Below are positions 11,122 through 52,102 of a DNA stretch of 64,000 nt, piece by piece (position 1 is the first letter of the stretch; every line of letters starts with the position of its first letter). The DNA is taken from assembly GCF_030684315.1 (NCBI RefSeq), contig NC_081354.1:55332259-55396258 (forward strand). Direction: 5' to 3'. Position numbers and translations under genes: made by a program. This DNA is from Stegostoma tigrinum. Taxonomy: Eukaryota. Below the pieces are notes generated by a model. That model saw nothing but the letters and a program-made list of their open reading frames with translations. It did no database searches and was not told where the DNA came from.

Positions 11122-11710
11122 GTGAGTACCTTTTATAAGATATTGAATTAAAATCCTTATTTTCAATTATGTGACTTGTTTTCATATAAAATGCAAAAGC
11201 AGATAACTCCAGGAAAGTGAACGGTTTGAAATGGGATAATGGGATATGTTTCAGGGGAGAAATCGGATTGAAGGATTAAATGAAAGAATTGGTAGACCTC
11301 AAGAATCTGACCTCAAGACTAATGACAAGCATCTGTGATACTTTTTCAAAAATTCCTTTCCTAAAAATTCTTACTTCTCAGTCTGAAACTGATTCTGCAA
11401 TTTCAAACATTTTGTGCAGAATTTTAGTTTGACCAAAGGTTCAGGCTTGGGCCAGGGGTGATGAAAGCTGTGCTCCTGGGTCAGAAAGCTGAAGGGCTCC
11501 CAACCATCACGTCCACAATTAGTCACAGTGAGTTGAAAAGTAGATGGGAAATTAATGTGGAGCCACTGGGTAAATAATTTACAGATTTAAACAGGCAATT
11601 CCTTTGGAATTAAACCTAAGATTGTGTCTTCAGCAGTCAGAGAACAGGTTCCCCAAACTTTGCGGAATTTGCCAAGGGAGAACACAATGGGCAGCATTGT
11701 TTATTAACTT

Positions 11711-11850
11711 CAGTGATAATGGGAACTGCACATGCTGGAGAATCCAAGATAATAAAATGTGGGGCTGGATGAACACAGCAGGCCCAGCAGCATCTCAGGA
11801 GCACAAAAGCTGACGTTTCGGGCCTAGACCCTTCATCAGAGAGTTTATTA
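11711..11850 (-). mobile_element. Penelope-derived short element, single arm plus tail, with hammerhead core
   Basis: Near-identical to the arms at 25664 and 47268; - strand CTGATGA-agggtctaggccc-GAAAC-GTC at 11812-11839; flanked by an attgtttatta direct repeat. Confidence 0.85.
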
Positions 11851-13139
11851 TTGTTTATTAGCTTCTCAGGTTTTGAGTAACAACATTTCATTGCTAGTGG
11901 GCTAGGCTTGGGCTCACTGCTCTTGGTTTGAGGTTGTGGTTTTGTTGCTTCACAGTGATTTACAACCTTCTGAAAGCAACTCTTCCTCCTTTGATCCACA
12001 ATTTGCCTCCTCCAGAGCTCAGTGCTGTGGAACAGCTGCTTACACAGTGTTCCATCTCACACCTCAAACACGGGACCACATGAGCAGCACCAGTTGCCTT
12101 AGCTTAAGCCACATGCTGCCGCACAGTACAAAGCGCGTAGACACGGAGATCTCTCACAAATACTAGTGTCAATTCTGCCATATGTTGTCCATTCCTTTGG
12201 GCTAGATCATTTGGATAGAGTTGAAAACTTCAGTTTTTTATAACAGGAGAATGGGGTTGAGAAACGTATCAGTCAAGATTGAATGGTGGAGCAGAATGGT
12301 TTATTTCTGCTCATATATCTTATGGTCTTGATGGACAGAAATTTGGAAGTTTCTTTGGCATGGATTTTTGCCTATCATTCTTTATCAGTTATTTGTTAAT
12401 TGACAACATATTGATTTCGTTTTAAAAGCTGAAATTCTGACAGAATGTTAAAAATGTGCCAATCCATGTTCAGGTACTTGATTTCCCTTTGTTGGTTGTT
12501 TTATGCTGTCTGAAGTGCCAGTCTAAGAATCTATATAGCAATGTAGTGCCTTTCTATGTTTGCATCGACTCCACTAGTCCTATTAAAAATTACTGGCTTG
12601 TAGTAACAGACGTTTGCCTGTTGGTGGCAGTCGTACCCATAAAAAGGGAATAATGACCGCCTTGTTTTCAAAAAATGTTTTGGGGAAAAGAGACCGGTGG
12701 AATCAACCGATGTGTGAACACAGGTGCAGATTGGTTTGTATTATTTGTGTGTTTCTATAAATACTCTTTCGAGGAGCAATTTTATTTTCTGTCATTCAGC
12801 ACTTTTAACCACTGTTTACTTTAAATTGGATCAACAAAAGCCTCTTGTTTGTTTTTGTTTCAAAGAGTTACCAGTGGTAGCGTGCTCACTGTGCTTCAGT
12901 ACATAATGTAGCGCTGTATTTCAGGCGCAGTTATAACTACAGCTCGAAACTCACACAGATTGATGGATGACTGTTAGAAAATGAACAGTCACATTTCTGT
13001 CATCTCTCAGCCTTTCGCATCTACTTACTGTCAGCTTTTAGTGCCCACTTGCTACCAACATAGTGTTTATTGTTTCAGATATGTAAGTACACATAATACG
13101 TACCACAGATAGTCAGTTAGCTTCTGTTGAGTTAGATAT

Positions 13140-13268
13140 CAGGCCAGGTGGATCGGCCTGTAGTGTTCAGGGGTGTGTGGGTTATAGGGGGAATGGGTCT
13201 TCAAGGGGCAGTGTGGACTTGTTGGGCTGAAGGGCCTGTTTCCACACTGTAGGGAGTCTAATCTAAAC
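13140..13268 (+). mobile_element. HE1-like SINE / CR1 shared 3' tail fragment
   Basis: gtgtggacttgttgggctgaagggcctgtttccacactgtaggga tail, also seen at 22555-22600 and 27627-27670. Confidence 0.65.
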
Positions 13269-13269
13269 A

Positions 13270-13885
13270 GAGACCACGGATGGAAGGCTGGCTTTCGTGA
13301 TGGTCTGCGCTGTGCACACCACTTTCTGTAGTTTCTTACGGTCCTGGGCAGAGCAGTTACCATACCAGGCCGTTATGCACCCAGACAGTATACATTCAAT
13401 GGTGCACCTATTGGTGAAGGACCTTTATGAACATGTCAAATTTCCTGAGCCGCTCGAGGAAGAAGAGGTGTTGTTGTACCTTCTTGACTGTCACATTTAT
13501 GTGGGATGTCCAGGACAGGTTGTTGAGTATAATCACTCCAAGGAATTTAATGCTGTTTGCCCTGTTAACCTCAGTTCTGTTAATGTAGCTGGGGGTGTGT
13601 TCTCCTCCTTTCTCTGTGAAGTTGATGATCAGTTCTTTAGTTTTGCTGACGTTGAGAGACTGTTTTCATTGCACCACTTCATCAAGCCCTCTATCTCCCT
13701 TCTGTGGTTTGACTCAACTAATCAACTTTGTTAGATACCCGTCCCACTGTGGTGGTGTCATCGGCAAACTTGTAGATGGCTTTCATTTGGAATTTGGCAA
13801 CGCAGTCGTGGACGTACAGGGAGTACAGGAGGCGGCTAAGGACACCTCTTTGAGGGGTTCCAGTGTTGAGTGTTATTGTGGAGGT
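13270..13885 (-). mobile_element. Rex1/Babar-like non-LTR retrotransposon RT fragment
   Basis: ORF 13718..13936 has TLNTGTPQ.GVLS.LLYSLYVHDC...KFADDTT.VG, typical of Rex-Babar RT; downstream A.QHLFFL.RLRKF-like remnants. Confidence 0.8.
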
Positions 13886-14499
13886 GATTGGGGTGGTGGG
13901 AGGAGGGAGGTGCAACCTTCCCAGGGTTCTATCCATTCTCTTGGCTCTTCAGGAAACAATGGAGATTCCAACCATTCTGACCCCACGCTCTCCCTCCCTT
14001 ATTGATCTGGAAAGATGGGAAGCTGGAAGTGGTTTGCAAATGACGTGGCTGAGTGTCTGTAAAGCCTGCTGCTACAGCAAATAGGCTACCAACCTTCTGG
14101 CTGGCTCCCCACCCCACTGTGAGCCAATCTTTTTTTTAAAAAAAAGTCTCCCTGCTTTGTTGCTTTAGTTTCAGAAATTGCAGGCAGCAGCATTAAAGAA
14201 TATAGCGCAGAATATAATCTATCACATCACCAATCATACCTCTCAGTGTCATCCTTAGAATGCATCGGTCCGACAAAGCAGACATCAAACATCAGGTACT
14301 GTCATAGCATTGTGTATGTGGTATACAGATCTGAGCATATAAAGTAATCTTAGTGTTTCAAATATATCAGGAACATCACTGTCTGTAGCCTGGACAACTA
14401 GCAAGTGTGGGGAGGGGCTTAGTTTGCAAAAGAAAGGTCAAGTGATCTGATACAAACTCTAAATATTGATGGAAATAACAGTCTGGTTCCCTGACAAAT

Positions 14500-15105
14500 T
14501 GGATCTTGGTTAATTGAACAAAAATGCTGTATATGAGAAATGATTTAAACTTATTGTTGAGAATTGTGAGGTAATGTATTTTGGTGAAAGAAACACAGAG
14601 AGACAATCCAGGCTCTAGAGTACAACTTTGAGGGGAGTACTGGATCAGAGGGACCTCGGGGCTCATGTCAATGAAGAATTTTAGATGCAAGGAAAAATTA
14701 GAGAAATTGGGCTTATTCCCCTTGGAACAGAGCAGATTAAGAGATTAGTGAGGTGTAAAAAATTATGAACAATTTTGACAGAATAAAGAAGGATATTCTG
14801 TTTCCTATGTTATTCAGTTTGCTATGTTAACAACTAGGGATCACAATTTCAAGAGAGCTAGGAGTGAGATGAGGAAAGTGTTCATTTCTCAGAATTGTTA
14901 GGATTTGGAATTGCTGCCTGGGAGAGTGGTGGAGGCAGATTCCATAGGAGGTTTCAAAGGAAAGCTAGATATTTATTTGAAAGTGATAAATTTAGAGGGC
15001 CGAGGAGATAGGGCTGTAGAAGGGGATTAGCTTTTTCGGGAGTCAGTACAAACATGATTGGTCAAATGGCCTCCTTCTGTACTGTAAAATTTCATGATTC
15101 TATGT
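14500..15105 (+). mobile_element. CR1 LINE 3' fragment
   Basis: CEV.YFG, QRDLG and LEKLGLF remnants, and a 3' end aaatggcctccttctgtactgtaaa. Confidence 0.7.
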
Positions 15106-15358
15106 CTTTTGATAACTGTGCAATTAATATCCTTCATAGACTATAATTAATAAAGGGACTATGGTTGCTAAAACCTGCACAATTAGCAATTGTATCAATT
15201 TTCATGAACTTTTCTTCACTAATTATCTTTTATTGTTTTGTTATTCAGCTGGAAACAGGTACCTGAGTAAGTATCAGACTAACACAATTCATTAAATGGA
15301 ATGTGCCCATTTCAAAGCCATGTCCTAATGAAACAATGGATTTACCTTCCCCATGCAG

Positions 15359-15922
15359 TTCCTGCTGGCATTACGGACTGTTCTGTTAACTTGATGTTTT
15401 TGGTGGATGGTTCATGGAACATGGGCCTCGAGGGATTCCTTCAAGCTAAAGCTTTTGTTAAAATACTTCTTCAGTCCATCACAACTTCTTCAGCAAGACT
15501 CTTAGTGGGATTTGCTCAGTATAGTGACAACGTTTGCATTGAGATTGGAATGGGACAGTACAGTGACTTCAATGGTTTGTTTAAAGCAATAGATAACATA
15601 TCCTTTAATGGTGGAAAGACATTCACTGGAAAAGCCCTGCAATATGTAGCTGACAATGGTTTCGGTGAAGTCTCTCGAATGAATGTTCCTCATGTCCTTG
15701 TAGTGTTTTCCAATTCTAAATCTCATGACTCAGTGCTACTCGCTGCACAACACACTAAAGAAAAGGAGATACTTGTTTTGTCCATTGGAAAAAAATACGT
15801 TCAAAATCAACTAAACCGCATAGCTGGAGATGCTCAGCTTGTATTTGCATATAATGAACCACAAGAACTCTACGGTAAGGTTTTGGAGCTCAGGAGAAAG
15901 ATATGTGGATTTAACACACCTG
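15359..15922 (+). CDS. VWA2-like exon (VWA domain 2)
   Basis: ccatgcag acceptor, gtaagt donor; 564 bp phase 1-1; lies in ORF 15301..16059; DCSVNLMFLVDGSWN...GGKTFTGKAL...KICGFNTP. Confidence 0.93.
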
Positions 15923-18619
15923 GTAAGTTGTCCTATTTTCTGTGTTGGTGCTTAGGGTTTAATAATGTGCTTTTTAGTACAGGCCACATCTGGGTGAGAT
16001 GTGGGTGTGTGCATGATGAGGTGACTTGCTACAGCAGAAATGCGGCTCCTGTTATTTAAATTAGAGACAATGGCAATACATGCACCCGGTTTGAGGCAAT
16101 CATAAGAGAATAAAAGGTAATCCTGACAAGCTCTGATTCCACGATGGAAAGTGACATGTCCCCAAGTCTAATTCTGTATCTAGATTTTCAATGGGGTATA
16201 AATTCTCAGCATCATATTGCCCTAATATCTTCAGTAATGTACAGTAAAGTCAAAAAGTGAAGTAGAAAAAAAGTATGAATTAGAAGCCAGGAGACACTCG
16301 CTTTCATTCATAAAGAAGAAAATTGCACAGAGGAAATTTTCTGATGTGCTATAGATTTGAACTAACAGGAAGAGGTCAGACAAAATTCAACTCAAAACAT
16401 AAAAGATTTATCTTGGTTCTTAGAGTTCTTAGCGTCCACAGGCTATAATCACTGTAATTATGCTGGGTGCTGTTCAATGGTGATCTGTGGCAGCAAGCTC
16501 ACAGTATATTTTGGGAGCAGTAACAAGTGATCTAATTTGAAAGTCTAAGGCAGGTGTCTATCCATTAGAGATACATCTCAGTTAATCAACAGCCACTGAC
16601 TTGCCTTTGGCTGTCCAAGCTACTCCTGGTTGCTCCAGGATCGTTCTGCCTTTACCGGGGAACGGTCAGTCTGTGCCTACTGATTGGGTTCCAGGAAAGT
16701 CAAGGTTACAAAAATTTCCTGTAGTTGGTTGGAGATGCAGGTGTGGACACCTACTTTTCCATCATCTCGACCATATTTGAGGAAAACCGTTTACTGCTGG
16801 CTGCACAAGTATTTGATTCTGTTGCCACACTGTCCTTTTGAAGATTAGATCTCAAAGATGTGGGTTCCTTTGCTCCTCAGAGGAGGGTAACCATTTCTCT
16901 GCTTGGAGGAATGACAGTACTGTGTTTGTATTCCCGCTTGTGCTCGGTGAAGCACCTGAGTATGACCTTTCTGATACTTTAATTGATTTTAATGAGTGAG
17001 CACCTTTTTGCTGGTGCAAGTAGATGCCCAAGATGTGGTTGATGAGAATGTGGATCAGCAATTGGATAGGCAGTCATTAGGATAGTGGACCTCTTCCTCC
17101 AAGGCAGCCTTTTTGATGTGAAACCTAGTTTAGCTGTGAGCACAGTTACATTTGCCTCTGCTTTGTAATCCAGAAAGGAAGCTCAGGGTGCTTAATTTGC
17201 ATTTGATGAACCTTTGTCAAACTTCTCCTGCTCCCTTGGTTCTAACCCGCTCTCCCCACCTGATCTCTAATTGTCTATTTTTGTATCTATTGCTTCTCTC
17301 TCTTCTGTACACTTGGGGCTTTCAGTGGTGATGATACTCCACTTGTCAATTTTGTAAGGTTGTACGTCACTGCTGGAGTTCATCTGTCGCTGAAACCCCC
17401 AACCATTTGTTAGCTCCAGATTGAATGATTCCAGCAACCTCCTCCCATTTTCCACTGTCTGACTGTGAAAACTGCAGACTAAATTAAGATCAACCTGGTG
17501 TAACTGCTCATATTTGGCTTGCTGAACTTGTCCAATTTCTGCTTCCTCAGTTGCTGCAGTCTTTTCCTGTCAGTAGTCACATTTCGGTTGCAGGCTAACT
17601 GACTGACTGACTGTGTATTCCTAAAATGATAACATTCTGAAACGAGTAAGCTCAGTCAGTCTTCAATATTTTCTTTGTCTGGATCTTCTGTTCCTCAGAA
17701 AGTCGAATCTGTGTTGCTGGTCACCAAAGGGTACTTTCCTGATTGCCATCTCATGCTTTATGCCACCTCTGCCAATATGTGGATCAGAGTGAGGGTTGTT
17801 AGAGATAACTCCCTGCTACCAATCCTCCTTTCATCATTAGACAGATTCTAGACAAAATATTGATAGCCATACAGGATACACAACCATAGAGTCTACAGAA
17901 AGCTCACTGATCTTAGTTAACAAGAAGATTAATTGCCTGACAGCAATAACTCCAACTACATCAAAAAGCAGACATTATTACTAGGATTTTCAGGATCTGT
18001 AGCCTACCATAGAATTCACTGCCTCCAGACAGTGACTGTGTCACCTCACCGGAAACTCAAGATAATGTAAACATTAACATCTTCTTCAAAATCTTATACA
18101 TATTCCGCTGCCTATCTCTGCTATTCTCACCTCTACCAACACTTGCCAGTGCTCAGGAACCTCTGTCACTAAGATTGAGAACATATCACTTCAATCCCTT
18201 CTTCTACCTCACTCTTACTAAAGTTTCCCCTTCCTTAGCTGTGACCTTCTAACTTTCTCTAATGTCTCTCCAAACTCCCCTCAGGCTCAGGTCATCCAAA
18301 AGATTTATTTCCTGATCTATCAACCCTCTTTCTCACTAATTAACTGGACATCCAAATTCTCTTTCTAACTGTCATGTTAGTCAATATTTTTAGTGCTTTT
18401 CTCTTGCTAATTAGTTTTGCCTTCAAACCTGCTATCATTAGCTATCTCCTCATAAAGTCCTTTCATCTCTCCAACATTTCAAAGTGCCATCTCTGTCTTC
18501 GCTTCCTAATGTCCTTGAATCTTTTTCACTTCCTAAATCCATGTACTTCATGCTTGTATCTTTCCGTTGAGGTGTCAACTCCTGCCATTGTGCCATATTG
18601 GCTCTTAGCAAAGTCAAGA

Positions 18620-18850
18620 AACAGCCTCTAACATGACTGGAGGCAGACTATCATCCCCACTCTTTCTTGACCTCACACCCAGCTTTAGTCACAGTTCACT
18701 ACACCCTCCTCCTCCAATGCCATTCTGCCATCATCCATGTACTCTCTCATATTTATATTCTTATTGATCTAACCATAGCCTGAGAACGGTCGGTGGTGGT
18801 TCCTCTTCCTAGTCCAGCACTGTTACTCCTTGTATTCCCTACAACACCGA
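18620..18850 (+). mobile_element. Ancient L2-like LINE fragment
   Basis: Degenerate FLDL..AF.TV.Y.LLL motif in C/T-rich sequence. Confidence 0.4.
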
Positions 18851-18974
18851 CAACATTCACCCTTCCAAATCTGTTTCTGTGAAAGAAAATGAGCGCTTAT
18901 GCGAAAATTCAGTGAAAACATGAAGAATCCAGAGACATCCTTTGTTTTATAAGACAAAGACCTATGGGAGATGG

Positions 18975-19130
18975 AGATTTGAAGCAAAAACAGAAACTGC
19001 TAGTGAAACTCTGCAGTTCTGGCAACATTTGTGGGGAGAGAGCAAAGTTAATGTTTCAAATTCTGACAAAGAGTATGCTAAATCTGCTGAGTTTTGCCAG
19101 TAAGTTCTTTTCCTGTTTGACATCTTTTGT
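18975..19130. mobile_element. Old fold-back Penelope-derived short element
   Basis: aaacagaaactgctagtgaaactc...gagttttgccagtaagttc imperfect inverted arms; related degenerate copies at about 49060-49230, 52655-52770, 54415-54500 and 60330-60485. Confidence 0.55.
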
Positions 19131-19326
19131 TTGAAATCTGTATCACCTTGGGGTTTATAACAGCTGGAAGCTGGAAAGTAAAGATTCATGTACAAAATGC
19201 TATTAATGGCATTGATGTAAATGTTGTTGTGTTCACAGAAACTCTGGACAAATTGAAAGAGATTATTTTACCATATGGTGCAATATAAACTAGAATACGT
19301 CAGTGTGTGACTTCATTGTTTTACAG

Positions 19327-19878
19327 ATTGTTTTTCCAAGTCTTTAGATCTAGTATTTGCAGTCGATGCTTCTGGTCAAGCTGGAAGACAGAATTTTCGA
19401 CAAATAAAAGGGTTTGTGAGGAACATTGTCTCACATTTTGACATTGACAAAGACCTCACACAGGTTGCTATGGTGATCTACAGCGACAAGCCCCGAACTC
19501 TCTTTAACTTGGATTCATTTGACAGTGAAGGAAAAATTAAAAGGGCAATCAGCTCAGGCCCATTTCTAGACGGGAGTGCTCACACCGGGAAAGCTCTTAA
19601 ATATATACAGGAGGATACCTTAAGTATCCAGAAGGGAGCAAGGCCAGGAATCAACAAGGTCGTTGTGGTGATTACTAATGGGCAGAGTTCAGATGATATT
19701 GTTCCGAATGCTGAAGAACTCCGACACAGTGGGATTACTGTAATTGCACTGGGAATGGCAGACACTCGGGCAACAGCACTCCTCAGAATTGCAGGAAGCC
19801 GCAAATTTGTGATTCCTGTTCATTCCTATGAAGATTTTAAACATCATGAAATCAACTTGGTACGGAAAATATGTGAAG
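19327..19878 (+). CDS. VWA2-like exon (VWA domain 3)
   Basis: ttacag acceptor, gtaagc donor; 552 bp phase 1-1; DCFSKSLDLVFAVDASGQ...QKGARPGINKVVVVITNG...KICE, compare VWA2 QRGARPGVPKAVVVLTGG. Confidence 0.93.
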
Positions 19879-20149
19879 GTAAGCTGCGCCTATCCTGTTT
19901 TTAAACTTGCAGAGTACTGTTATATGAGATTTAATTTTAGCACTGTGCATGGCTGAAAATGAGCTATGTTTGAGAAGCCTTAGTTGTCAATAGAGTCTGT
20001 AGCATAATATCTCATCTTGGTCTATAACTTCTTATAATCTTCAGTCTCACTGTCACCATATATATATATATGTCCAATATTGAAATTTGGAGTCTGTTTT
20101 GAAGCAGTTAAAGACACAGCATCAGCTTTTGCTGAAAGTCTTTTTAGAG

Positions 20150-21435
20150 TCATAAAGTCATAGGGATGCAGGGCATGGAAACAAATCCTTCAGACCAACT
20201 TGTCCATGCCAGTATCCTAAATAAATCCAGTCCCATTTTCCCAGCATTTGGCCCATATCCCTCTAAACCTTTACTATTCATGTATCCATCCATATACCTA
20301 TTAAATGTTGTAATTGTACCCCCCTCCACCACTTCCTCTGGTAGCTCATTCCACATATGCACCACCCTCTGTGCGAAAAAGTTGCCCCTTAGGTCCGTCT
20401 TAAATCTTCCCCTTTCATCTTAAACTGTTGCTGTCTAGTTTTGGATTCCCGCACCCTGGGGAAAAGGTCTTATTTATTTACCATATCCATGCCCCTCATG
20501 GTTTTATAAACCTCTACAAGGTTATCCCTCAGCCTCTGAAACCCCAAGGAAAATAGCCCCAGCCTATTCAGCCTCTCCCCATAACTCAAACCTTCCAACC
20601 TTGGCAACATCCTTGTAAATCTTTTCTGAACCCTTTCTAGTTTCACAACATCCTTCCTATAGCAGGGAGACTAAAATTGCACACAGTATTCCAATAGTGG
20701 CCTAACCAATGTCCTGTACAGCCTCTGCTACTCAATGCACTGACAAATAAAGCAAGCATACCAAATGCCTTCTTCACTACCCTATCTGCCTACAACTCCA
20801 CTTTCAAGTAACTATGAACCTGTACTCCAAGGGCTCTTTGTTCAGCAACACTTCCCAGGACCTTACCATTAAGTGTATAAGTCCAGCCCTGATTTGCCTT
20901 TCCTCAAATAAAGCTTAATTAAAGTCCATCTGCCACTCCTCTGCCCATTGGCCCATCTGATCAAGTAACCTCCTTCCTTCACTGCCCACTACACCTCCAA
21001 TTTTGGTGTCATCTGCAAACTTACCAACCGTACCTCTTATGTTCATATCCACATCGTTTGTACAAATAACAAAAAGCAGTGGACCCAGCACCAAACCTTG
21101 TGGCACACTGCTGGTTACAGGCCTCCAATCTGAAAAGCATCCCTCCATGACCACCCTCTGTCTTCTACCTTTGACCTAGTTCTATACCCAAATAGCTAGT
21201 TTTCCTTGTATTCCGTGTGATCTAACCTTGCTAACCAGTCTACCATGAAGAACCTTGTCAAACGCCTTACTGTAGATCATTGTAGGTCATGTCCAATGCT
21301 CTGCCCTCGTCAATCCTCTTCATTACTTCTTCAAACTCAATCAAGTTAGTGAGACATGATTTCCTACACACAAAACCATGTGACTATCCCTAATCAGTCC
21401 TTGCCTTTCCAACTACATGTAAATCCTGATCCTCA
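20150..21435 (-). mobile_element. CR1 LINE fragment (RT to 3' end)
   Basis: ORFs 20915..21154 (VPQG.VLGPLLF, KFADDTK) and 20150..20365 (WNELPEEVVE). Confidence 0.9.
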
Positions 21436-21439
21436 GTTA

Positions 21440-23220: not shown

Positions 23221-23250
23221 GGGGGGTGGGGGGGGGGGGGGGGGGGGGGG
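23221..23250 (+). repeat. Poly-G tract
   Basis: G6-T followed by a run of about 23 G. Confidence 0.9.
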
Positions 23251-25228: not shown

Positions 25229-25626
25229 AGGGAAGATAGACATTATAGGGATGGACTTAAGAATGGACAATAAATGTTGGCCTCTAATGACACTATATTC
25301 CATGAAAGCATAAAGAAAAGGTATAAAAGATGCATCTGTTTGCAGCACAAGTGTTTATTAGTAAATATCCTGCAATAGTATCGAAGTTTAGGTCATTATG
25401 TGGAGTACAGTTCACCTATATTGATAGTTTTTTTTGATTTAACAGGGCCTCTTCGACAATATTCACAACAACCAGTCTCTGAGATATCCAGAAAATAAGA
25501 AATTTTGTTCAGCTGAAGAAAAGCTGGAAAAATGGGAATGACGTTTAGATTTTCAATCGTTAGAACTCCTACCTTCTGCATTTTGATGCAAGGCATCTTC
25601 AGATTGAACACAACTTAAAAAAAATC

Positions 25627-25859
25627 CAGAGATAATGGGAAATGCAGATGCTGGAGAATCCAAGATAATAAAATGTGAGGCTGGATGAACACAGCAGGCC
25701 AAGCAGCATCTCAGGAGCACAAAAGCTGATGTTTCGGGCCTAGACCCTTCATCAGATGAAGCCTCTCTGATGAAGGGTCTAGGCCCGAAACGTCAGCTTT
25801 TGTGCTCCTGAGATGCTGCTTGGCCTGCTGTGTTCATCCAGCCTCACATTTTATTATCG
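25627..25859. mobile_element. Penelope-derived fold-back element with hammerhead cores
   Basis: 93-bp inverted arms (25664-25756 / 25766-25858, one mismatch), 9-nt spacer, left-side tail, 14-bp TSD taaaaaaaatccag. Confidence 0.92.
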
Positions 25860-26399
25860 TAAAAAAAATCCAGCTTATTGTTTTGAATACTTGGAAAAAG
25901 TCCCCAGTACAGAAATTTACTTTCTATTTTTCACAGCCTGCATTTTTGTGTAAATAAGCATGTTCAGTTTTTGTCTTTTGCCGCAGTTGTTTGCTACAGA
26001 GACCATCAGTTGTAAAATCGCTGGGCCAGCACCACAACTTCAGGTCTTATACTGAGCTATTTTAGTACAGTTGTAGTTGTATTGGACCTGACGACAGAGT
26101 CCAGAATACACAGCAGTATACTCAGAAAAATTTTGCATTTATTTCTTATAAAATGTCCAATAATTTGTAATGCTTTTCACTTTTTGCACAGATACAACTT
26201 GACGGTTGTGTTTTAGCACTGATTTTGCAATATATTTGCTCTCTTTACTCATTAGTAAACAAGTCTGAAGAATAAGTCAACACAGAATTGCATCACCAGA
26301 ATTTATAAATCACATTTAACCTAACTTAGTAACATGCATTAAAATTTAAATCATTTTCTTTTGAGATGTATGCAGTTATTTTTATCAAAACATTACCAG

Positions 26400-33719: not shown

Positions 33720-33853
33720 AAAAAAACCTGAAAGAACTGCAGATGCTGTAAATCAGGAATAAAATCAAAGTTGCTAGAAAAGGTCAGGTCTGGCTGCATC
33801 TGCGAAATGAAAAACAGTTAACGTTTCAGGTTCGGTGACCCTTCCTCAGAACA
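33720..33853 (-). mobile_element. Penelope-derived terminal fragment with hammerhead core
   Basis: - strand gtt-CTGAGGA-agggtcaccgaacct-GAAAC-GTT-aac at 33820-33849, followed by a cagcatctgcagttc tail shared with the fold-back family. Confidence 0.7.
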
Positions 33854-34688: not shown

Positions 34689-34955
<267 letters not shown>

Positions 34956-36863: not shown

Positions 36864-37178
<315 letters not shown>

Positions 37179-37669
37179 TTAACGTTACATTGAGATCATC
37201 ACTATTGGGAGGGTTAAGTGCTGCTGCACATTACTGCTTGCACACTGCTTGCAGGCCAGAGATTTCAGGCCCTTTCAATATACTGCTGCAACAATGCCAG
37301 ATGAATTTCACTGATGCTCATCACTGCTGAGCACAGATTTCCAATGGATCTTCAAGGCTTCCTATAGTTGTTTCATACCCAAAATTTCAAAATTGTCCTT
37401 GATATTTTGTAGTAAATACTTTTTGAAGACAAGATGGGGTAAAGTAGCAGCACTACATCCGTTGCTCTTCCAAACCCTACCCCACATTAACTAATAAGTC
37501 AACTAATACAGGTGAATTCTTGATGAAATCACATTATCTAAATGTAAAATATTAATGCTTATAAAATTCAGACTCGAAGTGTTGATGTATGAACCATTAA
37601 ATTCTAAATGCCATACACAAAAGAAAGTCAAACAGAAAAAAAAACAAGAATCCCCACATGTAACTGCAG

Positions 37670-37800
37670 GCCATGATGTGGAGGTGCTGGTGTTGGACTG
37701 GGGTAGACAAAGTCAGAAGTTGCACGACACCAGGTTATAGTTTACCAGGTTTATTTGAAATCAAGCTTTCAGAGCTTAGCCCCTTCATCAGGTGAAGTGT
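37670..37800 (-). mobile_element. Penelope-type terminal fragment with hammerhead core (third family)
   Basis: - strand cac-CTGATGA-aggggctaagctct-GAAA-gctt at 37763-37791, then aataaacctg...ctataacctggtgtcgtg. Confidence 0.6.
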
Positions 37801-38443
37801 GAGCACTTCTGTGCACTCAGGCACAGAATTTATAGGCAGAGAGATCAAAAGGATCAAACAAATGGGGTGTGAAGTGTCAGACAAGACTCTGCAAGACTAA
37901 GAGATCACCCATTCAATAGAAAGAAAAAAAAGGAATGTTTCCTTTACGAAGATAGTGAAACTGTGGAATTTGGAGAGCTGTTGAGTCTGGGTTTTTAAGT
38001 ACATTTGAGGCCGTCACAGACAGATTTTTAATTAGGTTTATGGGGATAAGACAGGAGAGTGGGGCTCAGTTTTATCAGATTAGCCATGATCTCACTCAAT
38101 GGGCCAAACAGCCTACTCCTGCTCCTATATCTTACAGTTTTATGAGGCACAATTTAGCATTTAAAAATTAATCACCAAGCTGTGAAGTTACATGGAGGAA
38201 TAAATTTTGTTTATTACATTAGAGTGCTGGGGCAGAAAGGATATTGCCAGTGCAGATTAAGTGATCAGACTGTGAGAATGGCAGAACAATATAGTGTGTC
38301 TAACTGCCAGATTTGAAAGAACACATACAGTTTGCACTGGGGTAGGGGGAAATGGAAGGCAGGACATGGTACAGAGAATGTAAGTAGTAAAGCAAAAAGA
38401 AAAGAAAGGGAGAAATGGAAATTGGCTCACAATTTAAAAGGTG

Positions 38444-38654
38444 ATCAGTGATAATGAGAATTGCAGATGCTGGAGCATTGAGCTCAACACCTTTAAATTG
38501 TGACAACAAAAAAAGCGTGGGGCTGGATGAACACAGCAGGCCAAGCAGCATCTTAGGAGCACAAAAGCTGATGTTTCGGGCCTAGACCCTTCAGCATTTC
38601 TGCTGCTAAGATGCTGCTTGGCCTGCTGTGTTCATCCAGCCCCACACTTTGTTG
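38444..38654. mobile_element. Penelope-derived fold-back element, centrally deleted
   Basis: Same arms and tail as the 25627 and 47268 copies; TSD tcacaatttaaa(a)ggtg at 38427-38443 / 38655-38670. Confidence 0.85.
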
Positions 38655-39010
38655 TCACAATTTAAAGGTGTTGAGCTCAATGTTAAGTCTAGAAGACTGT
38701 AAAGTGCCCAGTCTGAAAATGAGATGTTGTTCCTTCAGTTTGCGCTATGATTCACTGGAGCACTACAGCATGCCAAGGACAGACAGGTGGGCGTGAGAGC
38801 AGGATTTGTTAAAATGACCAGCTACAGGAAGATCAGGGTCATACCCAGTGTCTACAAAGAAAAAAAAAGTTGCCTAGTGCATATTTGGTTTCCCCAGTGT
38901 ACAGTAGACTACATTGGATGCAGTGAATTCAATACATGACGTTGGGAGGTGGTACAGGTGAAATGCTGCCTCACCTGGAATGACTGTTTAAGCCCTTGGA
39001 TGGTGAGCAG
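38655..39010 (-). mobile_element. Penelope-like element GIY-YIG endonuclease remnant
   Basis: - strand translates IQGLKQSFQVRQHFTCT..NVMY*IHCIQCSLLYTGETK ... CSSES*RKLKEQHLIFRLGTLQSSRLNIE (with frameshifts), which are PLE GIY-YIG motifs. Confidence 0.85.
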
Positions 39011-39244: not shown

Positions 39245-42200
39245 TAAGGGAGCATCAGGATTGGCAGCTTAACATTCCAGGATACAGATGTTTCAGTTGG
39301 CATAGAGGGCGATGTAAAAGGGATTGCATGAGTTAAGGAGAATATCACAGCTGCACTGCAGGCAGACACCTCAAATGGCTCATACAGCTAGGCAATATGG
39401 GTAGAGCTCAGAAACAGGATGGATGCAATCACAATATTTGGGGTTAACGACAAGCCTCCCAACTGCTAGCATGAGATAGAACAACAGATATGTAGGTAGA
39501 CTTTGGCAAGATGTAGAAGTAACAGGGTTGTTGTCATAGGTGACTTTAACTTCCCACATATTGACTGGGACTCGGTGTTTGGGGCGCCAGAGCACACCAA
39601 GTACACCCTTCAGCCCACGATGTTGTGCTAACCTATTATTCTAAGATCAATCTACCCTGTATACCCTACATTGTACTATCCTCCAAGTGCCTATCCAAGA
39701 GTCGCTTAAAAGTCTCTAAAGTATCTGACTCCACTACCACTGCTGGCAGCATATTCCACATGCCCACCACTCTGTGTGAAGAACCTACCACTGACATCTT
39801 CCCTATATCTTCCTCCAATCATCTTAAAATTATGCCCCCTCGTGATAGTCATTTCCACCCTGGGAAAAAGTCTCTGACTATCCACACCTCATCATCTTGT
39901 ACACCTCTATCAAGCCAACTCTCATCCTTCTTCACTCCAACGAAAAAAAAGCCCTCATTCCCTCAACCTTTCCTTATAAGGAACTGCCCTTCAGTCCAGG
40001 CAGCATCCTGGTAACTCTCCTTTGTACTCTCTCTAAAGCTTCCACATTTTTCCTATAATGAGGTGACCAGGCCTGAACACAATATTCCAAGTGTGGTCTA
40101 ACCAGAGTTTTATAGAGCTGCAGCATAACCTCACAGCTCTTAAACTCAATTCTCCTGCCAATGAAAGCCAACACCCCATATACCTTCTTTACAGCCCTAT
40201 CTTGGGTAGCAAATTTGAGGGATCTATGGATCTGGAACCCAAGGTTCCTCTGTTCCTCCACATTGCTGAGAATCTGCTAGCTGGGCAGAGTTTGCAAGGA
40301 GCATCCAGGAGGGCTTCTTGAAACAATATATGTGGATAGTCCAACGAGGAGAGTGGCCACACTGGATTGGGTAATGAGCCTGGCCAGGTGGTCAACCTCT
40401 CAGTAGGGGAGCAGCTCAGGAACAGTGATCACAATTCAGTAAGCTTTAAAAGGTAATGATGGATAAAAGATAAGTGTGGCTGTCAGGAGAAGGTACTAAA
40501 TTGGGGGAAGGTAATTACTACAATATTAGGCATGAACTGAAGAACGTAGATTGGAGACAGATGTTTGAGGGCAAATCAACATATGGTATGTGGGAGGATT
40601 CTAAGTGTAAGTTGCTGAGAACTAAGGCACATTCCTGTAAAGATGAAGTATAAATATGGAGAGTTTAGGGAACCTTGGATAATGAGAGATATTGCAAACC
40701 CTGGTCAGAAAGAAAAAAAAATTGTCAAGGCCAGGACACTGAGAACACACGAAGCAAGGGTGGAATACAAGGAAGTCGAAAGATACTTAAGCAAAGGAGT
40801 CAGGAGGGCTTAAAAAGGTCACAAAAAGTCATTGGCCAACAGGATTATAAAAAGCCTAGGAATTTTTCTTACTTATATAAAAAGCAAGAGGGTAGCAAGG
40901 GAGAGGATTAGCCCACTCAAGGACAGGGAAGGGAATGTGTGTGGAGTCAGAAGAAATGGGTGAGGTATTAAATGAATACTTTGCATCAGAATTCACTGGG
41001 TGAAGGGAAGGACTTGCTGTGTGATGAGTCTGGGAATGGTATGTCAATAGTTTGGGTCATGTTGAAATCAAAAGGAAGGAGGCATTAAGGGTCCTGAGAA
41101 ATATTAAAGTAGACAAGTCCCCAGGGCCTCTTACCCCAGAATACAGAGGGGCAAGGGCGGAAATTGTTGGGGCCTTGAGAGAAATCTTTATGTCCTGAAT
41201 TGCTACAGGGGAGATCCCAGAGGATTGGAGATGGATGATCCAGCTAATTGCAAACCATTGAGCCTTACATCAGTGGTAGGGAAATTATTGGGAAGGATTT
41301 TTCAAGACAGAATTTATTCCCACTTGAAATAAGTGGGTGTATTAGCAACGGGCAATATAGTTTTGTGAAAGGGAGTTAGTATCTCACTAACTGGATTGAG
41401 TTTTTTGGGGATAGTGACAACGATGATTGATGAGGATAGGGCAGTGGATGTTGTCTACACAGACTTCAGTAAGGCCTTTGACAAGGTCCCTCATGGCAGG
41501 CTGATATAGAAGGTAAAGTCCCATGGGATCAGAGGTGAGCTTGCAAAGATGGATTTAAAACAAAAAACTGGCTCGGTCACAGTAGACAGAGGGTAGCAGT
41601 AAATGGAGGGCTGTGACTAGTGGCGTTCCTCAGGGATCAATGTTGGGACTGTAGTAAGATTTGGACGAAAATGTAACTGGTTTGATTAGTAAGTTTGCAG
41701 ATGACACAATGGTTGTGGAACTGCAGATATGGATGAGGACCAGAGGATTTAGCAAGATATAGATGGCAGTTGAAGTTTAATCCAGAAAAGTGTGAACTAA
41801 TACATTTTGGAAAGTCTAATCCAGATAGAAAATATACGGTAAATGGCAGAACCCTTAAGAGTACTGTTAGGCAGAGGGATCTGGGCGTACAGGTATACAG
41901 GTCACTGAAAGTGACTGCTAAAGGTGGAGAAGATAGTCAACAAGGCATATGGCATGCTTGCCTTCATTGGCTGGGGTATTGAGTTTAAAATTGGCAAGTA
42001 ATATTGCAGCTTTACAGAAGCTTATTTAGGCCACATTTGGAATATTGTTTAATTCTAGTCATCACACTACCAGAAGGATGTGGTGGCTTTGGTTTACCAG
42101 GATGTTGCCTGGTATGGAGGACATTAGCTATGAGGAGAGGTTGGAGAAACTTGGCGTGCTCTCACTGGCAAAACAGAGATTGAGAAGTAATCTGATAGAG

Positions 42201-42595
42201 GTTTACAAGATTATGAAGGGCATGGACAGAGGTTACAAAGTTATGAAGGGCATGGACAGAGCGGACAGTCAGAAGTTGTCCCCAGGGTAGAAGAGGGAGT
42301 TACAAGGGGGCATAAGTTTAAAGGTGCAAGTTTTAAAAGTGATGTAGGAGGCAAATTTTTTTTTTAAAAAAACAAAGAGTGGTGGGTGCCTGGAAATCAC
42401 AGCCAGGGGAGGTAGTGGAAGCAGATACCATTAGGTGACTTTTAAAGGGCGTCTTGACAAATACATGACTAGGATGGGAATAAAGGGATACGGTCCCCTG
42501 AAGGATAGGGGGTATGAGCTGTAACGGGCAGCACGTTGATGCAGGCTTTGAGGGCCAAAGGACTTGTTCCCGTGCCTTAAATTTTCTTTGTTCTT
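39245..42595 (+). mobile_element. Long degraded CR1 ORF2 (APE-RT) with a nested - strand CR1 3' fragment at about 39590-40275
   Basis: GDFNFP, SDHN, KSPGP, DFSKAFDKVPH and KFADDT remnants; nested ORF 39974..40261 has LYKTLVRPHLEYC. Confidence 0.9.
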
Positions 42596-43749: not shown

Positions 43750-44240
43750 TGACAGTGAACATCAAGGGTTGATGGATAGATTCTCTTTTGAAAGAGCTGA
43801 TCATTGTAAATTGTTTGGCATGAAGAGGTTACTTGCCACTTATCAAACCAAATCTGAACTTTGTCCAGATCTTGCCGAATACAGACACCAACAGCTTCAG
43901 CATGAGAGGTGTCACATTTAACGCTGAAAGTTGTTTGCTGATGTTTGCACATCTTCGCTTCAGACTATCATTGAGGGAACATCATTGATGAATGCAGTTG
44001 AAGGAGGTCAGGCCTAGGACACAGCCAGAAGGAACTCCTGCAGGGATACCAGAGTTGAGATAATTCACCTCCACCATCTTTTTTGGTTTGGCATGATTTC
44101 AACCAAGAGAGAGATTTCCCCCAAATTCCCACTGACTTCAGGTTTTTGATGTCACACTCTACAGGTTTACATCAAGGGCAGTCAGTGACATCTCACCTCC
44201 AGTTCAGCCTTTATGTCCACGTTTGGACAAAGGCTGTATT
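43750..44240 (-). mobile_element. LINE RT fragment (second CR1/L2-clade family)
   Basis: - strand LDV..., GVPSG.VLG, AVG...RQDLDKVQIWFDKWQV remnants. Confidence 0.7.
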
Positions 44241-44606
44241 ACACTGGGATTTATAATTAAAATGTAACTGATTTCAGAAATAAGTCCATAAAACCCTGCA
44301 TATCTTTGTTGTGATCCAACGGTCAACTTTCTGTTGTGTGCTCTGTAATCCAAAATCTAAGAGAGAGTGAGATCTGGTCTCAACGCAGACTTCAGTTTCC
44401 CTAAAGCTTGGCTCTGGCCAACTTAGTTCTAATGTTAATCTAAAATTGTCCCCAAAAATAGTGCACTCTGCCCCAAGAATTAAAGTCTAGCTCCCTGAGT
44501 TAAGGGAAATCTCCAACGTAATTCAAAAGCCAAGATAAATTTGGACATTTCATCTATTCCACTAGGCTGGTTAAAGAATAAAATAGATACAGAAAACTTG
44601 ACTTAC

Positions 44607-44757
44607 CAAGGGTCACACTGAGTGCCAGAGCAGTTTGAGCATAATCTAGTGCTTCAGAATATGTCTTCACATGCAGCAGCAGTTCTGTCAGCTTGTTACA
44701 GAGCCTGAGCTCCACTTTTGCATTTTCAACTTTGACAGCAAGAGGAAGCGCTCGATC
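44607..44757 (-). CDS. SH3TC1: SH3TC1 exon
   Basis: 151 bp, cacag/gtaagt; DRALPLAVKVENAKVELRLCNKLTELLLHVKTYSEALDYAQTALALSVTL; absent from the ORF track and read manually. Confidence 0.92.
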
Positions 44758-45282
44758 CTGTGAACATACACATTAAATCTGACAATTCACTAAGTGAATT
44801 GCAGCTCCATTTGATATGATGACTTTACAGTATAACAGGCAATATTCAATAAAATACCCGCTATACTTTATCCATGTAGGTCACAGAACATTGAAACCTT
44901 TGTTCCTTGAATCCCCTTGTAACCGTAGTATCTTTTTAAACTTTTTAAAATGACCCATTCTCTAGTTCTTCAGTCTAGAGATCAAGACATATTGGGAAAA
45001 GTCTAATTCTAACTACGTAAAACATTGGTTCAGTCTCAACTAGAGTATTACAAGCACTTCTCAGTCTCATACTTTAGGAATTGTTACAATACCATAGAAG
45101 AACAATAACCTCCAAGATCAGCTTTACTCAATGAAATTCTATAGCAACAGTCGTCAAAACAGTATCCATGTGCAGAATCCTCTCAGTTTTGCCCATAGGT
45201 CTTCAGTCTCGTCAGTGGTAGAGGCAAGTACAATCACACCATTTAAAAAGACATTTGGACATGTACGTGGTTAGGACTGACA

Positions 45283-47230
45283 CTGGCAGAAGCCAAATTA
45301 TTGGGGCGTAAGTTATTACTGAGCAAGTGCCACTTGACAGCACTCTTGATGGCCCTTCCCATCACTTTGCTGATGATTTGAGAATCGACTGATGGCGTGG
45401 TAATTAGCCAGGTTTCATATACACAGGGCTCATCTAGGCATTTTTGTATGTTTGGGAAGATGTAACTGTACTGGAACAGCTTGGCTAAGAGAGCAGCAAA
45501 TTCTGGAGCACAAATCTTCAGTACTGTTCAAGGAGACTTGTCAGGGACCATTGCCTTTGCAGTTTCCAAGGCCTCAAACCATTCCTTGATATCATGTAGA
45601 GTGAATGGAATTGATGGAAGACTAGCATTTGTGATACTGAGGATCTTAGGAGGCTGAGGTACCTTGTTAGATGTCCTCCAACCTTAAACCTACATCAGAC
45701 CCTTGGTCAGCCTTCCAGGTCATAGAGCATGGAAACACCCTTAGGCCCAAACCATCCGTGCCAGCTAGCAAAGTGATGGGAAGGGTCAAGAGCGCTATCA
45801 GGTGGCACTTGCTCAGTAATAACTTACGCCCCAATAATTTGGCTTATGCTAGCATCAGTCCTCACCTCATCAAGACCTTGGTCCAAACATGGATCAAAGA
45901 GTTAAATTCCAGAAGTGACATGAGTGTGACTCTTAAGATCAAGGTCTTACTTGACCAAATGTGGTATCCAGGAACTCAGGCAAAACTGGGATCATTGAGA
46001 ATTGGGGGATAACTCTCAGCTGGTTTGAGTTATACCCAGCACAAAGACAGATAGCTTGTTGGGGGTCTGTCATCTCAGCTGCGGGGCATCACTGCAGCAG
46101 TTCTTGAGTGTCATGCCTCAGACGCCAACACTCTCAGACTTGCTTCATTAATAACATTGCTTCCATCAGAAGGTCAGAAGGTGAGAAATTTCACTGATAA
46201 TTGCACCATGCGCAAGACCATTCACAACTCCTCAAATACAGAATCAGTCTGTGCCCATTAAAGAAAGAAAGACCTGGACAATATGCAGACTTACACAGAT
46301 GGCACAAATGTTTCTTGCCATTTATCAAAGTGCCAGGCAATGACCACCTCTATCAAGAGAGAATTAAAACATGTCCCTTGGCATTCAATGGCTTTGATAT
46401 TGCTAAATCCCCCATATTATCAACATTCTGAGAGCTTACTGTTGACCAAAAGCTAATGTACAATTTAAATACTGTGGCTACATGAGCGGGGTAGATGGCA
46501 TATAGTGGTAATATCCATGGGTTAGTAAGTCAGAGGCCCAGGCTAATGCTTTGGGGACACAGGTTCAAAAATCAATAAATTTAAAACACAATACATTAAT
46601 TTGGAATTGAAAACTCATCTTAGCAATGCTGGGTATAACAACCGATTGTCATAAGTACATCTCATTCCTTAATATCCTTTATGGAAAAAAGCTGTCAGCC
46701 CTAGCCAGTCTGGCTTTAGATCCATAAGAAGGTGCCTTGAGGAATGTTAAAGAACTGAAAAAAATAAAAAGGTCAAACAAAACCTGTCCACAACAAACAA
46801 GACATGTCAGAAGTTCAATGGACTTCTCTAAATTCACCTGAACGAATACAGCTTGAGGAACACTCAAGAAACTCAAAACCATCCAGGATAAAGCAGCCCA
46901 CATTATTTGCATAACTGCTACACAGTAAGAGCAGCTTGTGCTGTCTACAGTATGCAATGCAGCAACTCCTCAGCACTCCTACAACAGTAACTTGCAAGAC
47001 CATGAGCACTATCACTTAGATGGAGGGTACAGGGCATAGTGTTTTCATGCATTCCTTGCCTATGTCTATGTTGCACGCCATCCCAACTTGGAAATACCTT
47101 TCGGATCCTTCCCTGTTTCTGGGACTCCCTTCCTAACAGCACTGTGGATGTAACTGCACTATATAGAATGCAATAGTTCAAGAAGGCTGCTCACCACTGT
47201 CTACTCCAGGGCAGTTAGGGATGAGGGCAG
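45283..47230 (+). mobile_element. LINE (second family) with inverted 5' segment and a nested SINE (about 46490-46730)
   Basis: - strand segment 45283-45660 and + strand segment 45767-47230 (SKVMG, LVQTWIKELN); nested gtggtaat...ggttcaaa SINE head. Confidence 0.75.
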
Positions 47231-47267
47231 AAAAGTGTGAAGTAAAAAGACAGTAAGCTATAAATGG

Positions 47268-47494
47268 TAATAAAATGTGAGGCTGGATGAACACAGCAGG
47301 CCAAGCAGCATCTCAGGAGCACAAAAGCTGACGTTTCGGGCCTAGACCCTTCATCAGAGAGCTCTCTGATGAAGGGTCTAGGCCCGAAACGTCAGCTTTT
47401 GTGCTCCTGAGATGCTGCTTGGCCTGCTGTGTTCATCCAGCCTCACATTTTATTATCTTGGAATCTCCAGCATCTGCAGTTCCCATTATCTCTG
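47268..47494. mobile_element. Penelope-derived fold-back element: perfect 188-bp palindrome plus 39-nt tail
   Basis: Arms 47268-47361 / 47362-47455 are exactly complementary; 16-bp TSD aagctataaatggtaa (47255-47270, 47495-47510). Confidence 0.95.
47366..47393 (+). ncRNA. Minimal hammerhead ribozyme motif (mirror copy on the - strand at 47330-47357; identical + copy at 25767-25794)
   Basis: CUGAUGA core, stem II GGGU-CUAG-GCCC, GAAA, palindromic ACGU helix III and a GUC cleavage triplet; helix I only about 2 bp. Confidence 0.7.
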
Positions 47495-49676
47495 AAGCTA
47501 TAAATGGTAACATCTTGAGAAGTGCAGATGAGCAGAAGGATTATGGCATCCACATGCCGAAGCCCTCAAAAGGTGGCAAAGGGTGACCTGGGCTTTTCAA
47601 ATAGAAGCTAGAACTTTATACATCACTTCAACTTCTTTTAAACATTCTGGGCTCCAAACTTCAAAAGGGATATAAAGAAAAGAATACCAGGGATGAATGA
47701 TTTATCTCATCAGGAGTTATTGGAAAAATCAGGACTGTTTTTCTTCAAACAAACAGAAGTTTAAGAGATGATTCAATAGAGTAGTTTATGTTATTGTAAT
47801 ATTTCACTGGAATATGGATCAACAAGAGACCATAGATTTAAAAGCATGCTGAAAAATATCTGGAGAAAGAATTTAGAAGTTTGTTTTTCCCATTCAGTTG
47901 TTGGGATCAACAATACTATACTTGGAAAGGAAGTGGGAACTGTTTCATAAACAATTTTGAAGCATAGTTGACAGATGCTGGAAGATAAGGAGTTTCTTGG
48001 GCGATAAACAAACAGCATGAGGATAGGATTAAGAATGACTGTTCTTTTAAAGAATGAGCACAATAACAAGATTTTTTTTATTCTAAATGCCTTTTAATTC
48101 AGAAGGATGGACAACAGCCTTTATAGGCACAGACTCAAGTGTGCATGTAACTATACTGTATATAAATATACAAGTACAGGTACAAAATACTGCAGGGTGC
48201 ATAATAAGGTAGAAAATAATGTAAATTCACATCATATCAGAAAAATGCAACTTTTATCACAAGGCATTGCAGTTTATAAAAAGCTACGAAATAAATACTT
48301 CTGTGCAGACAAGCATTTTCTCTGCAGTACAAACAGTTCTTCAATACTTGTGGATTTTTCAGATGATTTGTTATAGAACCCAAGTCCATAAGCAAACATG
48401 CTTGCACAGAGGAGATAAGGTAAATCAAAGAGTAATTGTTTAGTGATGCCATGATTTAAAATCCTACAAAAATTGTCGTATGGAAAAAAAACAAGGAAAT
48501 AAAAAAAGTTTGAAGTTTTGAGCTGCGGGAAGATTAATATTAAGAATAGGAATAGATCACTCAGACTCAAGTCTGTCTGCCATTCAAGTAGCTCACGGTT
48601 GGTAGGTACTGCACCTTCATTGACACAACTTAGCTCCATTTCATAAATACAGAGCAATCAGTCTTTACATAAATCAATTTCTTTTTGTATTTTATGAAAA
48701 AAGCTTCCTACAGAAGTTCTCAAAATGTATGACAAAGCAGGCATTCCTGAGATTACTGTATCTACCAACATAATAGCACCTTCATAAATATGAATATAGG
48801 ATATCTCATCTCAACTCCTTCTTTAAAAAATATCCAAAATCAGGTAAACACCCATACCAACTTGCTACCACAAGTATACTGGTGTGGGAATCCTATCTCA
48901 AAGTCCAGAGCCAGGGGAGTTTGAGGTGATAGTTAGAGAGAGCGACCTTCACTTGTAGTAACAGAGTAAGTGATCTGTACTCCGTCCCAGCCAGTGCAGT
49001 GTTGCACTGTTTCAATGGGGGGGTTGCAGGTCACGGACAGACCTGGAGGGGGGAAAAAAAAAAGCAAAATACTGCGAATGCTGGAAATCTATAAAAACCC
49101 CCAGAAGATGACAGGAATAAAATCAGCAGGTCTGGCCACATCAATGGATGGAAAGAATTGGTTGCTGCTTCTCTCTCCACAGGTGTCACCTGCCCAGTTG
49201 ACTATTTTCAACATTTTCTGGTTTTAATTCCATGGCATTTTAAAAAAAATTCCTTAGTGAAATAAACAGTACTTTTTTGCAAAGTAACCAGTCACTTCTA
49301 CGATTGGTTATTTTTCTCTCAGGAAGTTCTAGGGCTTTAAGTAGACCATAAAGAAACTCTGGCCAGTGGACGGTTTTTTGGTCAACATCATAGTTTCGAT
49401 ATTCCGCAAGAATTCTCTCTCAGACATGCCCCATAATCATCATATGCTGGAATAAACACTTGCCAATGGACTTTCTCCAACTGAAATTTGAAATCTGATA
49501 AAATTGATCTCAGAACATTCCACCCAAATTTTGGTTCACCAAATAAGGAGGCCTGATCCCGTGTTTTTGGAATCACAGGACCGCACTAAAATTGATCATG
49601 TTATATATAAATTTGATTTCCAGAAGAGCAAAGTATAAGATGAATGAAGTCTTACAGTACAAGAGAACGTACTTAC

Positions 49677-52065: not shown

Positions 52066-52102
52066 AATAGTAAAATTAGCAAGGTCTCCTTGAGGAGCAA
52101 AA

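Follow-up and report, generated by a model that had tools for sequence, protein, structure and literature searches.

Insertions of endonuclease-bearing (EN+) Penelope-like elements (PLEs) have been described as combining an inverted 5'-truncated copy, a palindrome at the junction, a tail of 30-40 bp and a target-site duplication (TSD) (PMC8557442, PMC3846280, PMC2377424), and the formation of their inverted repeats and tails has been called undefined (PMC8557442, PMC3846280). The minimal hammerhead ribozyme of PLEs is reported to have an extra base before helix II, a G10.1-C11.1 pair and palindromic positions 15.2-16.2, and such minimal motifs to be inactive as monomers and weak as dimers (PMC4209133). 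In the anole, the Poseidon protein is reported to cut and extend both strands, to favour AT-rich DNA and to use two start sites that bound the tail, and it is predicted to be a dimer (PMC11167929). Here we analysed 64,000 nucleotides of Stegostoma tigrinum (RefSeq assembly GCF_030684315.1, contig NC_081354.1, positions 55,332,259 to 55,396,258, forward strand; hereafter the window), which contain four young, very short copies of an element with a hammerhead motif. By their architecture these copies are PLE-derived, and they are largely explained by known biology; distinctive here are their extreme brevity, clustered 5' ends, longer TSDs and density.

The four closely related copies put forward by the original prediction are real and lie at 11711-11843 (A), 25627-25858 (B), 38446-38656 (C) and 47268-47494 (D). 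The claim that they share one design holds for the arm, the one-sided tail and the long AT-rich TSD, which are common to all, but not for the pair of full arms, found only in B and D (2/4). The tail is on the left in A, B and C and on the right in D, and measures 37-39 nt in A, B and D, with a 30-nt remnant in C. A head-to-head inverted copy with a junction palindrome is present in three copies (B, D and, degraded, C). None of the four is a direct tandem, and no tandem pseudo-long terminal repeat (pLTR) flanks an open reading frame (ORF), as expected for truncated insertions. Taking the D right arm as reference and counting differences over aligned sites, we found 5/133 in A (arm and tail, 96% identity), 3/130 in the left and 0/96 in the right arm of B, 7/90 and 8/66 in the left and right arms of C, and 0/94 between the two arms of D; B and D, in opposite orientations, are 97% identical over 230 nt. 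As an inverted 5'-truncated copy, a junction palindrome, a one-sided tail and a minimal hammerhead are all published PLE traits, the PLE origin proposed earlier is upheld. The predicted truncation just upstream of the core is also borne out, with 5' ends 1-5 nt upstream in all five young arms whose inner end is undamaged (A, both of B and both of D). The 3' ends fall into two classes, 37-39 nt apart.

The junctions of B and D are the most complete. In B, the left arm with its tail (25627-25756, minus strand) ends 1 nt upstream of the core at its 5' end, and this core carries a G>A change in helix III. It is followed by a junction insert (25757-25762) that, with the preceding base, is the reverse complement of the bases immediately upstream, and which we infer to be a snap-back scar with a 3-nt loop. 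The tailless right arm (25763-25858, plus strand) has an intact core at 25767-25794 and is 100% identical to D over 96 nt. The arms, of 93 nt, show one difference between them; the right one has three extra template bases at its 5' end compared with the left, and only the left one has a tail. Neither arm is therefore a plain copy of the other, since each carries bases that the other lacks. The flanking TSD is exact over 14 bp (25616-25629 and 25860-25873), its last 3 nt being common with the tail end. In D, a tailless left arm (47268-47361, minus strand, intact core 47330-47357) and a right arm (47362-47455, plus strand, intact core 47366-47393) form a perfect, spacer-free palindrome of 188 nt (47268-47455) around a self-complementary 4-mer. 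The one-sided tail of 39 nt (47456-47494, plus strand) has 8 nt that pair with the arm, and the resulting 8-bp arm-tail stem encloses the tailless end. The 16-bp TSD (47255-47270 and 47495-47510) is exact, and its last 3 nt are common with the arm end.

Copy A is a single arm with tail of 133 nt (11711-11843, minus strand), with an intact minimal core at 11812-11839 on the same strand. It is followed by an 8-nt stub (11844-11851, plus strand) with an inverted match to 11749-11756 and a direct match to 11853-11860, and which may represent the end of a second arm or a duplication by slippage within the target site. Its TSD has 16 bp (11696-11711 and 11850-11865) with one mismatch, the last base of the left copy being common with the element. 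Copy C is remodelled. Its tail remnant (38446-38475, minus strand, 30 nt, 90% identical to the D tail) is separated from the left arm (38506-38596, minus strand) by about 29 nt (38476-38505, minus strand) that repeat the right TSD and flank of C in inverted orientation and replace about 7 nt of the tail; the inverted match between 38476-38510 and 38648-38682 is exact over 35 nt. In the left arm the core is destroyed (8A>C and 30G>A), and the right arm (38591-38656, plus strand) has lost the hammerhead and inner part and begins in a TCAGC overlap across the cleavage site. Both C arms have 48G>A, 82T>C and 94A>G in common. The most likely origin of the inverted flank is a later switch of template, which lengthened the palindrome and made the two arms alike. 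The TSD of C (38427-38443 and 38655-38670) is exact over 12 bp, or 16-17 bp with one indel. AT-rich flanking repeats of 14-16 bp, as predicted, thus surround all four copies; the TSDs are 73-87% AT, against 59% for the window, and among 5000 random flank pairs none passed 11 exact matches or 12 with one mismatch.

The hammerhead motif was searched with a descriptor comprising the core boxes, a helix II opened by G, a palindromic helix III and an NUH site, with 300 shuffles as control. There are six matches in the window, against a shuffle mean of 0.01 (maximum 1): A, the right arm of B, both arms of D, an older relative (G, described below) and an unrelated repeat at 37791, so that four of the six fall within young copies. 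The arms had been described as hammerhead-bearing, and this is the case for four of the seven young arms, in which the core is intact; in the other three it is damaged or absent. The left arms of B and C have the G>A change in the helix III palindrome, that of C is also without A6, and the right arm of C is without a core. In all four intact arms helix I has 2 bp, short of the usual 4-5 bp, and helix II has 4 bp. With covariance models, no Rfam hammerhead family was found in the whole window (E<=1) or in the D arm alone (E<=10). Each scan gave four Rfam matches (microRNA (miRNA), signal recognition particle and long noncoding RNA families), all below gathering scores, and these reflect hairpins or chance; the best on C is an miRNA family. 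One of those on the D arm, weak and non-significant, at 47378-47481 on the minus strand, is to RMST conserved region 8 (E 5.8) and is probably due to chance. Differences from the D right arm are not significantly rarer in the core than in the rest of the arm (3/140 versus 23/488 sites, Fisher p=0.23). The same CpG is mutated in the left arms of B and C (30G>A, in the region of 25730 and 38571), and the older relatives have more CpG-type changes in the core; judged from the substitutions, such changes are consistent with methylation decay.

We consider it rather probable that the copies arose by head-to-head joining of two cDNAs, each primed by the target and begun at its own site on the RNA of a PLE end. 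The copies would then be pLTR-only insertions of an endonuclease-bearing PLE, templated by about the last 135 nt of its end (hammerhead core, about 60 nt and tail). This template may be a dedicated short master RNA or a longer RNA that ends early at a constant position. A PLE protein acting in trans, the presumed enzyme, would nick both strands of an AT-rich target 14-16 nt apart, the distance seen in the observed TSDs. Both 3'-OH ends would prime cDNA synthesis, one from the tail end and the other from an internal site 37-39 nt upstream; the two end classes are observed, and the two-site start is proposed by analogy with the anole PLE. Both cDNAs would stop 1-5 nt beyond the core, where the ends are in fact found, and would be joined by micro-annealing or repair, giving a palindrome with the tail on one side. 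If the second cDNA failed or was lost, a single arm would remain, as in A, and later template switching and deletion would remodel the palindrome, as in C. The fold-back would be made at every insertion and be a dead end, and the hammerhead would be a passenger from the source element. Copy B is the best witness for two cDNAs, with the tail on the left, three extra 5' bases on the right and between them a 6-nt fold-back copy of the left cDNA end. The centre of D matches the product of two cDNA ends annealing on the self-complementary 4-mer.

Other explanations share parts of this evidence. A single cDNA of the same PLE origin might fold back and self-prime the second arm, with the hairpin resolved at the tail boundary. 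PLE junction palindromes have been interpreted in this way (PMC3846280). The core ends are complementary over 6 bp, so a cDNA could snap back right after passing the core, which would explain the clustered 5' ends, and the centre of C is close to a self-priming product. We regard this route as possible but doubtful, because the right arm of B has bases absent from the left, D lacks a loop-sized spacer, and a deletion between two short direct repeats would account for the centre of C as well. The original prediction had treated the fold-back as a unit moving as the design of the family. That a two-armed element of about 230 bp is transcribed and retrotransposed whole would suit the 97% identity of B and D and their similar arm lengths; it is nevertheless unlikely. 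The centres differ in all four copies and each B arm has bases that the other lacks, from which we conclude that the fold-back is built anew at each insertion; B and D also differ in their tailless ends, A is one-armed, and a perfect hairpin of about 94 bp would be a poor template and would hide the ribozyme.

It is also very unlikely that hammerhead cleavage shapes the template, with some arms beginning at the cleavage site. The right arm of C does begin in the 5-nt overlap across that site, but the five other undamaged young ends lie about 30 nt from it, on the upstream side of the core, and cleavage is reported to be dispensable in vitro for the anole PLE (PMC11167929). Hardly credible, finally, is a DNA-transposon miniature inverted-repeat transposable element (MITE), or a foldback element, with a ribozyme-like motif arisen by chance. 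DNA transposons typically have short and fixed TSDs. The copies resemble MITEs in being short and non-coding with long inverted arms, but their TSDs vary between 14 and 16 bp, their ends are asymmetric with the tail on one side, and A has one arm, so that retrotransposition, as first proposed, is supported. Chance would also have to produce six descriptor matches where 0.01 are expected, and the motif recurs in other repeat families of the window.

Several points weigh against joining of two cDNAs. Only four copies are available and the argument depends mainly on B, whose left arm could have been trimmed by later repair, while D and C fit single-cDNA snap-back equally well. In B and D the primer ends have 1-3 nt in common with the element, whereas initiation in the anole study is reported to proceed without homology, and the TSDs of 14-16 bp exceed the 8-10 bp reported for Adineta PLEs (PMC11167929 and PMC3846280, respectively). 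The arm-tail stem has just one compensatory pair, in the older relative F, with 86% of cells paired, and its covariation does not exceed that of shuffles (102/500); over the seven arms, 88% of cells are paired, again not above shuffles (63/500 and 102/500). No autonomous element ending in the arm or tail sequence was found in the window, and a protein search with one arm frame (40 aa, against longer proteins) scored none of nine candidates. Even the single protein match obtained, in whale shark, is an association within a gene model, not mobilisation or partnership.

That match came from HMMER with a 44-codon (44-aa) arm frame, which found one sequence among 1.84 billion proteins, a whale shark gene model with 68% identity over 28 residues; two arm frames were searched, as the third contains a stop. 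In the model a four-residue word occurs on either side of a related arm of about 30 codons, and the opposite strand around the arm has 14 of the 15 positions of the GIY-YIG motif as we take it to be in PLEs (at most 11 in 20,000 shuffles). These features suggest that in a second carpet shark a related tailless arm was inserted into the endonuclease gene of a PLE, with a duplication of about 12 bp. It has been stated that PLEs land within or next to other PLEs, and they are reported to be expanded in whale shark introns. The copies themselves contain no ORF, and Pfam gave no PLE domain in them among 150 stop-free frames (146 of the 222 minus-strand frames above 20000 and four plus-strand frames). 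An exact 24-mer had no match in GTDB genomes, and blastn found none in plasmids.

The original prediction saw these copies as seeding ribozymes into introns. Three of the four (A, C and D) are indeed intronic, but B lies, on a map of the coding exons, between the last ones of two genes. A is in an intron of a VWA2-like gene (plus strand, between exons 11013-11135 and 15358-15942) and antisense to it; C and D are in introns of SH3TC1 (minus strand), C between exons 44760-44599 and 37085-36885 and D between exons 49805-49653 and 44760-44599. None of the three intronic copies would offer a foldable intact core in the host pre-mRNA, since A lies antisense to its gene, neither arm of C retains an intact core and sequestration is predicted for D, and the seeding of working ribozymes is therefore unsupported. 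In sequence context, helix II has a predicted probability of 0.0000 on either strand of B and D and of 0.07 in A, and the ribozyme is predicted to be buried in the hairpin in B and D. For an isolated monomer the predicted hammerhead-like fold has -3.6 kcal/mol, against -11.4 kcal/mol for an inactive fold that pairs both core ends, and the folding of a single arm is no better than that of shuffled sequences (z 0.62). On these models the ribozyme in these copies is probably silent. The anole PLE hammerhead is reported to be protein-assisted and dispensable for insertion (PMC11167929), and eight of nine Xenopus retrozyme dimers tested are reported without cleavage (bioRxiv 10.64898/2026.07.22.740005).

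The first reading overlooked older single-arm relatives (E to H) and two other PLE-type ends in the window. E (51966-52063, minus strand) is 84% identical, with a decayed core. F (33106-33203, plus strand) is an arm with tail and an internal deletion, and G (33734-33852, minus strand) is a more distant arm with tail whose core fits the descriptor, with a helix I of 3 bp; the boundaries of both are approximate. H (54440-54500, plus strand) is a short, decayed relative of the G type that begins near the cleavage site. At 52085-52422 (plus strand) lies the 3' end of a different PLE, in which a frame similar to a GIY-YIG tail precedes a hammerhead near 52311 whose first box is damaged; the label "Poseidon-like" that we give this end is an assumption. 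Its frame has no Pfam match, and in Atlas its best matches are unnamed (0.92), the nearest named cluster (0.81) having GIY-YIG in 17% of its members, which is a lead only. This end stands head-to-head with E, about 20 nt apart, with no common TSD. A short repeat of another family lies in an SH3TC1 intron (37668-37826, minus strand, sense to the gene) and has an intact core at 37763-37791 with a weak helix II (G-U at 10.1-11.1) and a 1-bp helix I. Helix II differs in sequence between the repeat families of the window that carry the hammerhead motif. No TSD was found around E, F, G, H, the 37791 element or the Poseidon-like end, or around E and that end together (0/7).

The two genes are convergent. 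The VWA-domain exon at 19311-19901 is 100% identical to S. tigrinum VWA2-like and the TPR exon at 36885-37082 to S. tigrinum SH3TC1; mapping the proteins to the window placed the VWA2-like coding exons from 1275 to 19877 and those of SH3TC1 from 55216 down to the last one at 34961-34692. In human, VWA2 lies next to AFAP1L2, so that the VWA2-like gene could have arisen as a paralogue in the genome duplications of vertebrates. The other main repeats are decayed fragments of long interspersed nuclear elements (LINEs) at 6041-7947, 20153-21400, 39332-42231, 55697-59635 and 61608-62362, which we take to be of CR1 type, a reverse transcriptase (RT) domain itself being found by Pfam; LINE 3' ends in common also occur at 13204, 22547 and 27621. 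Within a minus-strand LINE RT-like fragment, an inverted repeat of about 100 bp (45269-45371 and 45767-45866, 89%) has the appearance of a LINE 5' end that was inverted or duplicated.

The main value of these copies is as clean footprints of PLE insertion, since very short young copies with intact junctions, if tabulated across the genome, can separate two-cDNA joining from self-priming; ribozyme seeding is probably not where the interest lies. Four copies in 64 kb extrapolate to about 47,000-590,000 copies (95% Poisson, 2.77-3.70 Gb), only if the window is typical. Annotation can mistake such copies for MITEs or miRNA hairpins, and from their sequence it is plausible that C and D give long double-stranded RNA (dsRNA) hairpins in SH3TC1 introns. 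Tentatively, they could belong to a dedicated parasite of PLEs in carpet sharks, similar to a short interspersed nuclear element (SINE), with an RNA of about 135 nt, a 5' end fixed just upstream of the core and of the order of 10^5 insertions made by paired target-primed reverse transcription from both nicks. If so, the stagger of the nicks, the two initiation sites and the way of joining would be readable from each insertion, and the family would be both a large natural data set on PLE inverted repeats and tails and a major source of perfect intronic dsRNA hairpins of about 90 bp in sharks.

A tRNA-derived SINE was rejected as a classification, as the copies begin at the hammerhead and ARAGORN found no tRNA gene in the window. 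We found no description of the shark family in the literature searched; Repbase and Dfam were outside this search, so a library name is possible. The portions of PMC6155905, PMC8969392, PMC11979771, PMC12910113 and PMC5753468 covered contain nothing on it, and the two supplement files of PMC4209133 searched have no shark entry. Similar in general character are the animal non-LTR retrozymes, likewise short and non-coding, with a type I hammerhead, derived from PLE pLTRs, present in a chondrichthyan and including many monomers; their definition requires head-to-tail tandem units, which make dimer cleavage possible (bioRxiv 10.64898/2026.07.22.740005), whereas the shark copies are single or head-to-head. 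A retrozyme was therefore rejected, none of the four copies being tandem. The PLEs of Chlamys such as MRC1 are non-autonomous PLE derivatives too; their 3' ends are described as common with autonomous families, and MRC1-type elements form head-to-tail pLTR arrays in a clade without canonical hammerheads (PMC8557442), which is not so in the shark copies.

The shark cores share with the minimal type I hammerheads of metazoan PLEs the core boxes, the extra base, G10.1-C11.1 and the palindromic 15.2-16.2 (PMC4209133). Helix II has 4 bp here and 7-8 in Schistosoma, and helix I has 2 bp as in D. virilis, against 4-5 in Schistosoma (PMC4209133). According to the same source, Schistosoma has dispersed single hammerheads, derived from truncated PLEs, and opposite-strand pairs 100-700 bp apart; in the shark the opposite-strand cores are 8-11 nt apart. 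The anole Poseidon element PAc likewise has two ends bounding a tail about 95-135 nt past the hammerhead, with AT-rich targets and extension of both strands; its ORF is reported to begin at stem II (PMC11167929), whereas in the shark an ATG in the core runs into a stop after 13 codons. With the EN+ PLEs as a group (Penelope/Poseidon and Neptune), as they are described, the copies share the head-to-head inversion, the junction palindrome, the one-sided tail of 30-40 bp, a TSD and the AT-rich targets; they differ from them in containing no ORF sequence, in their total length of 133-230 bp and in the tight clustering of their 5' ends.

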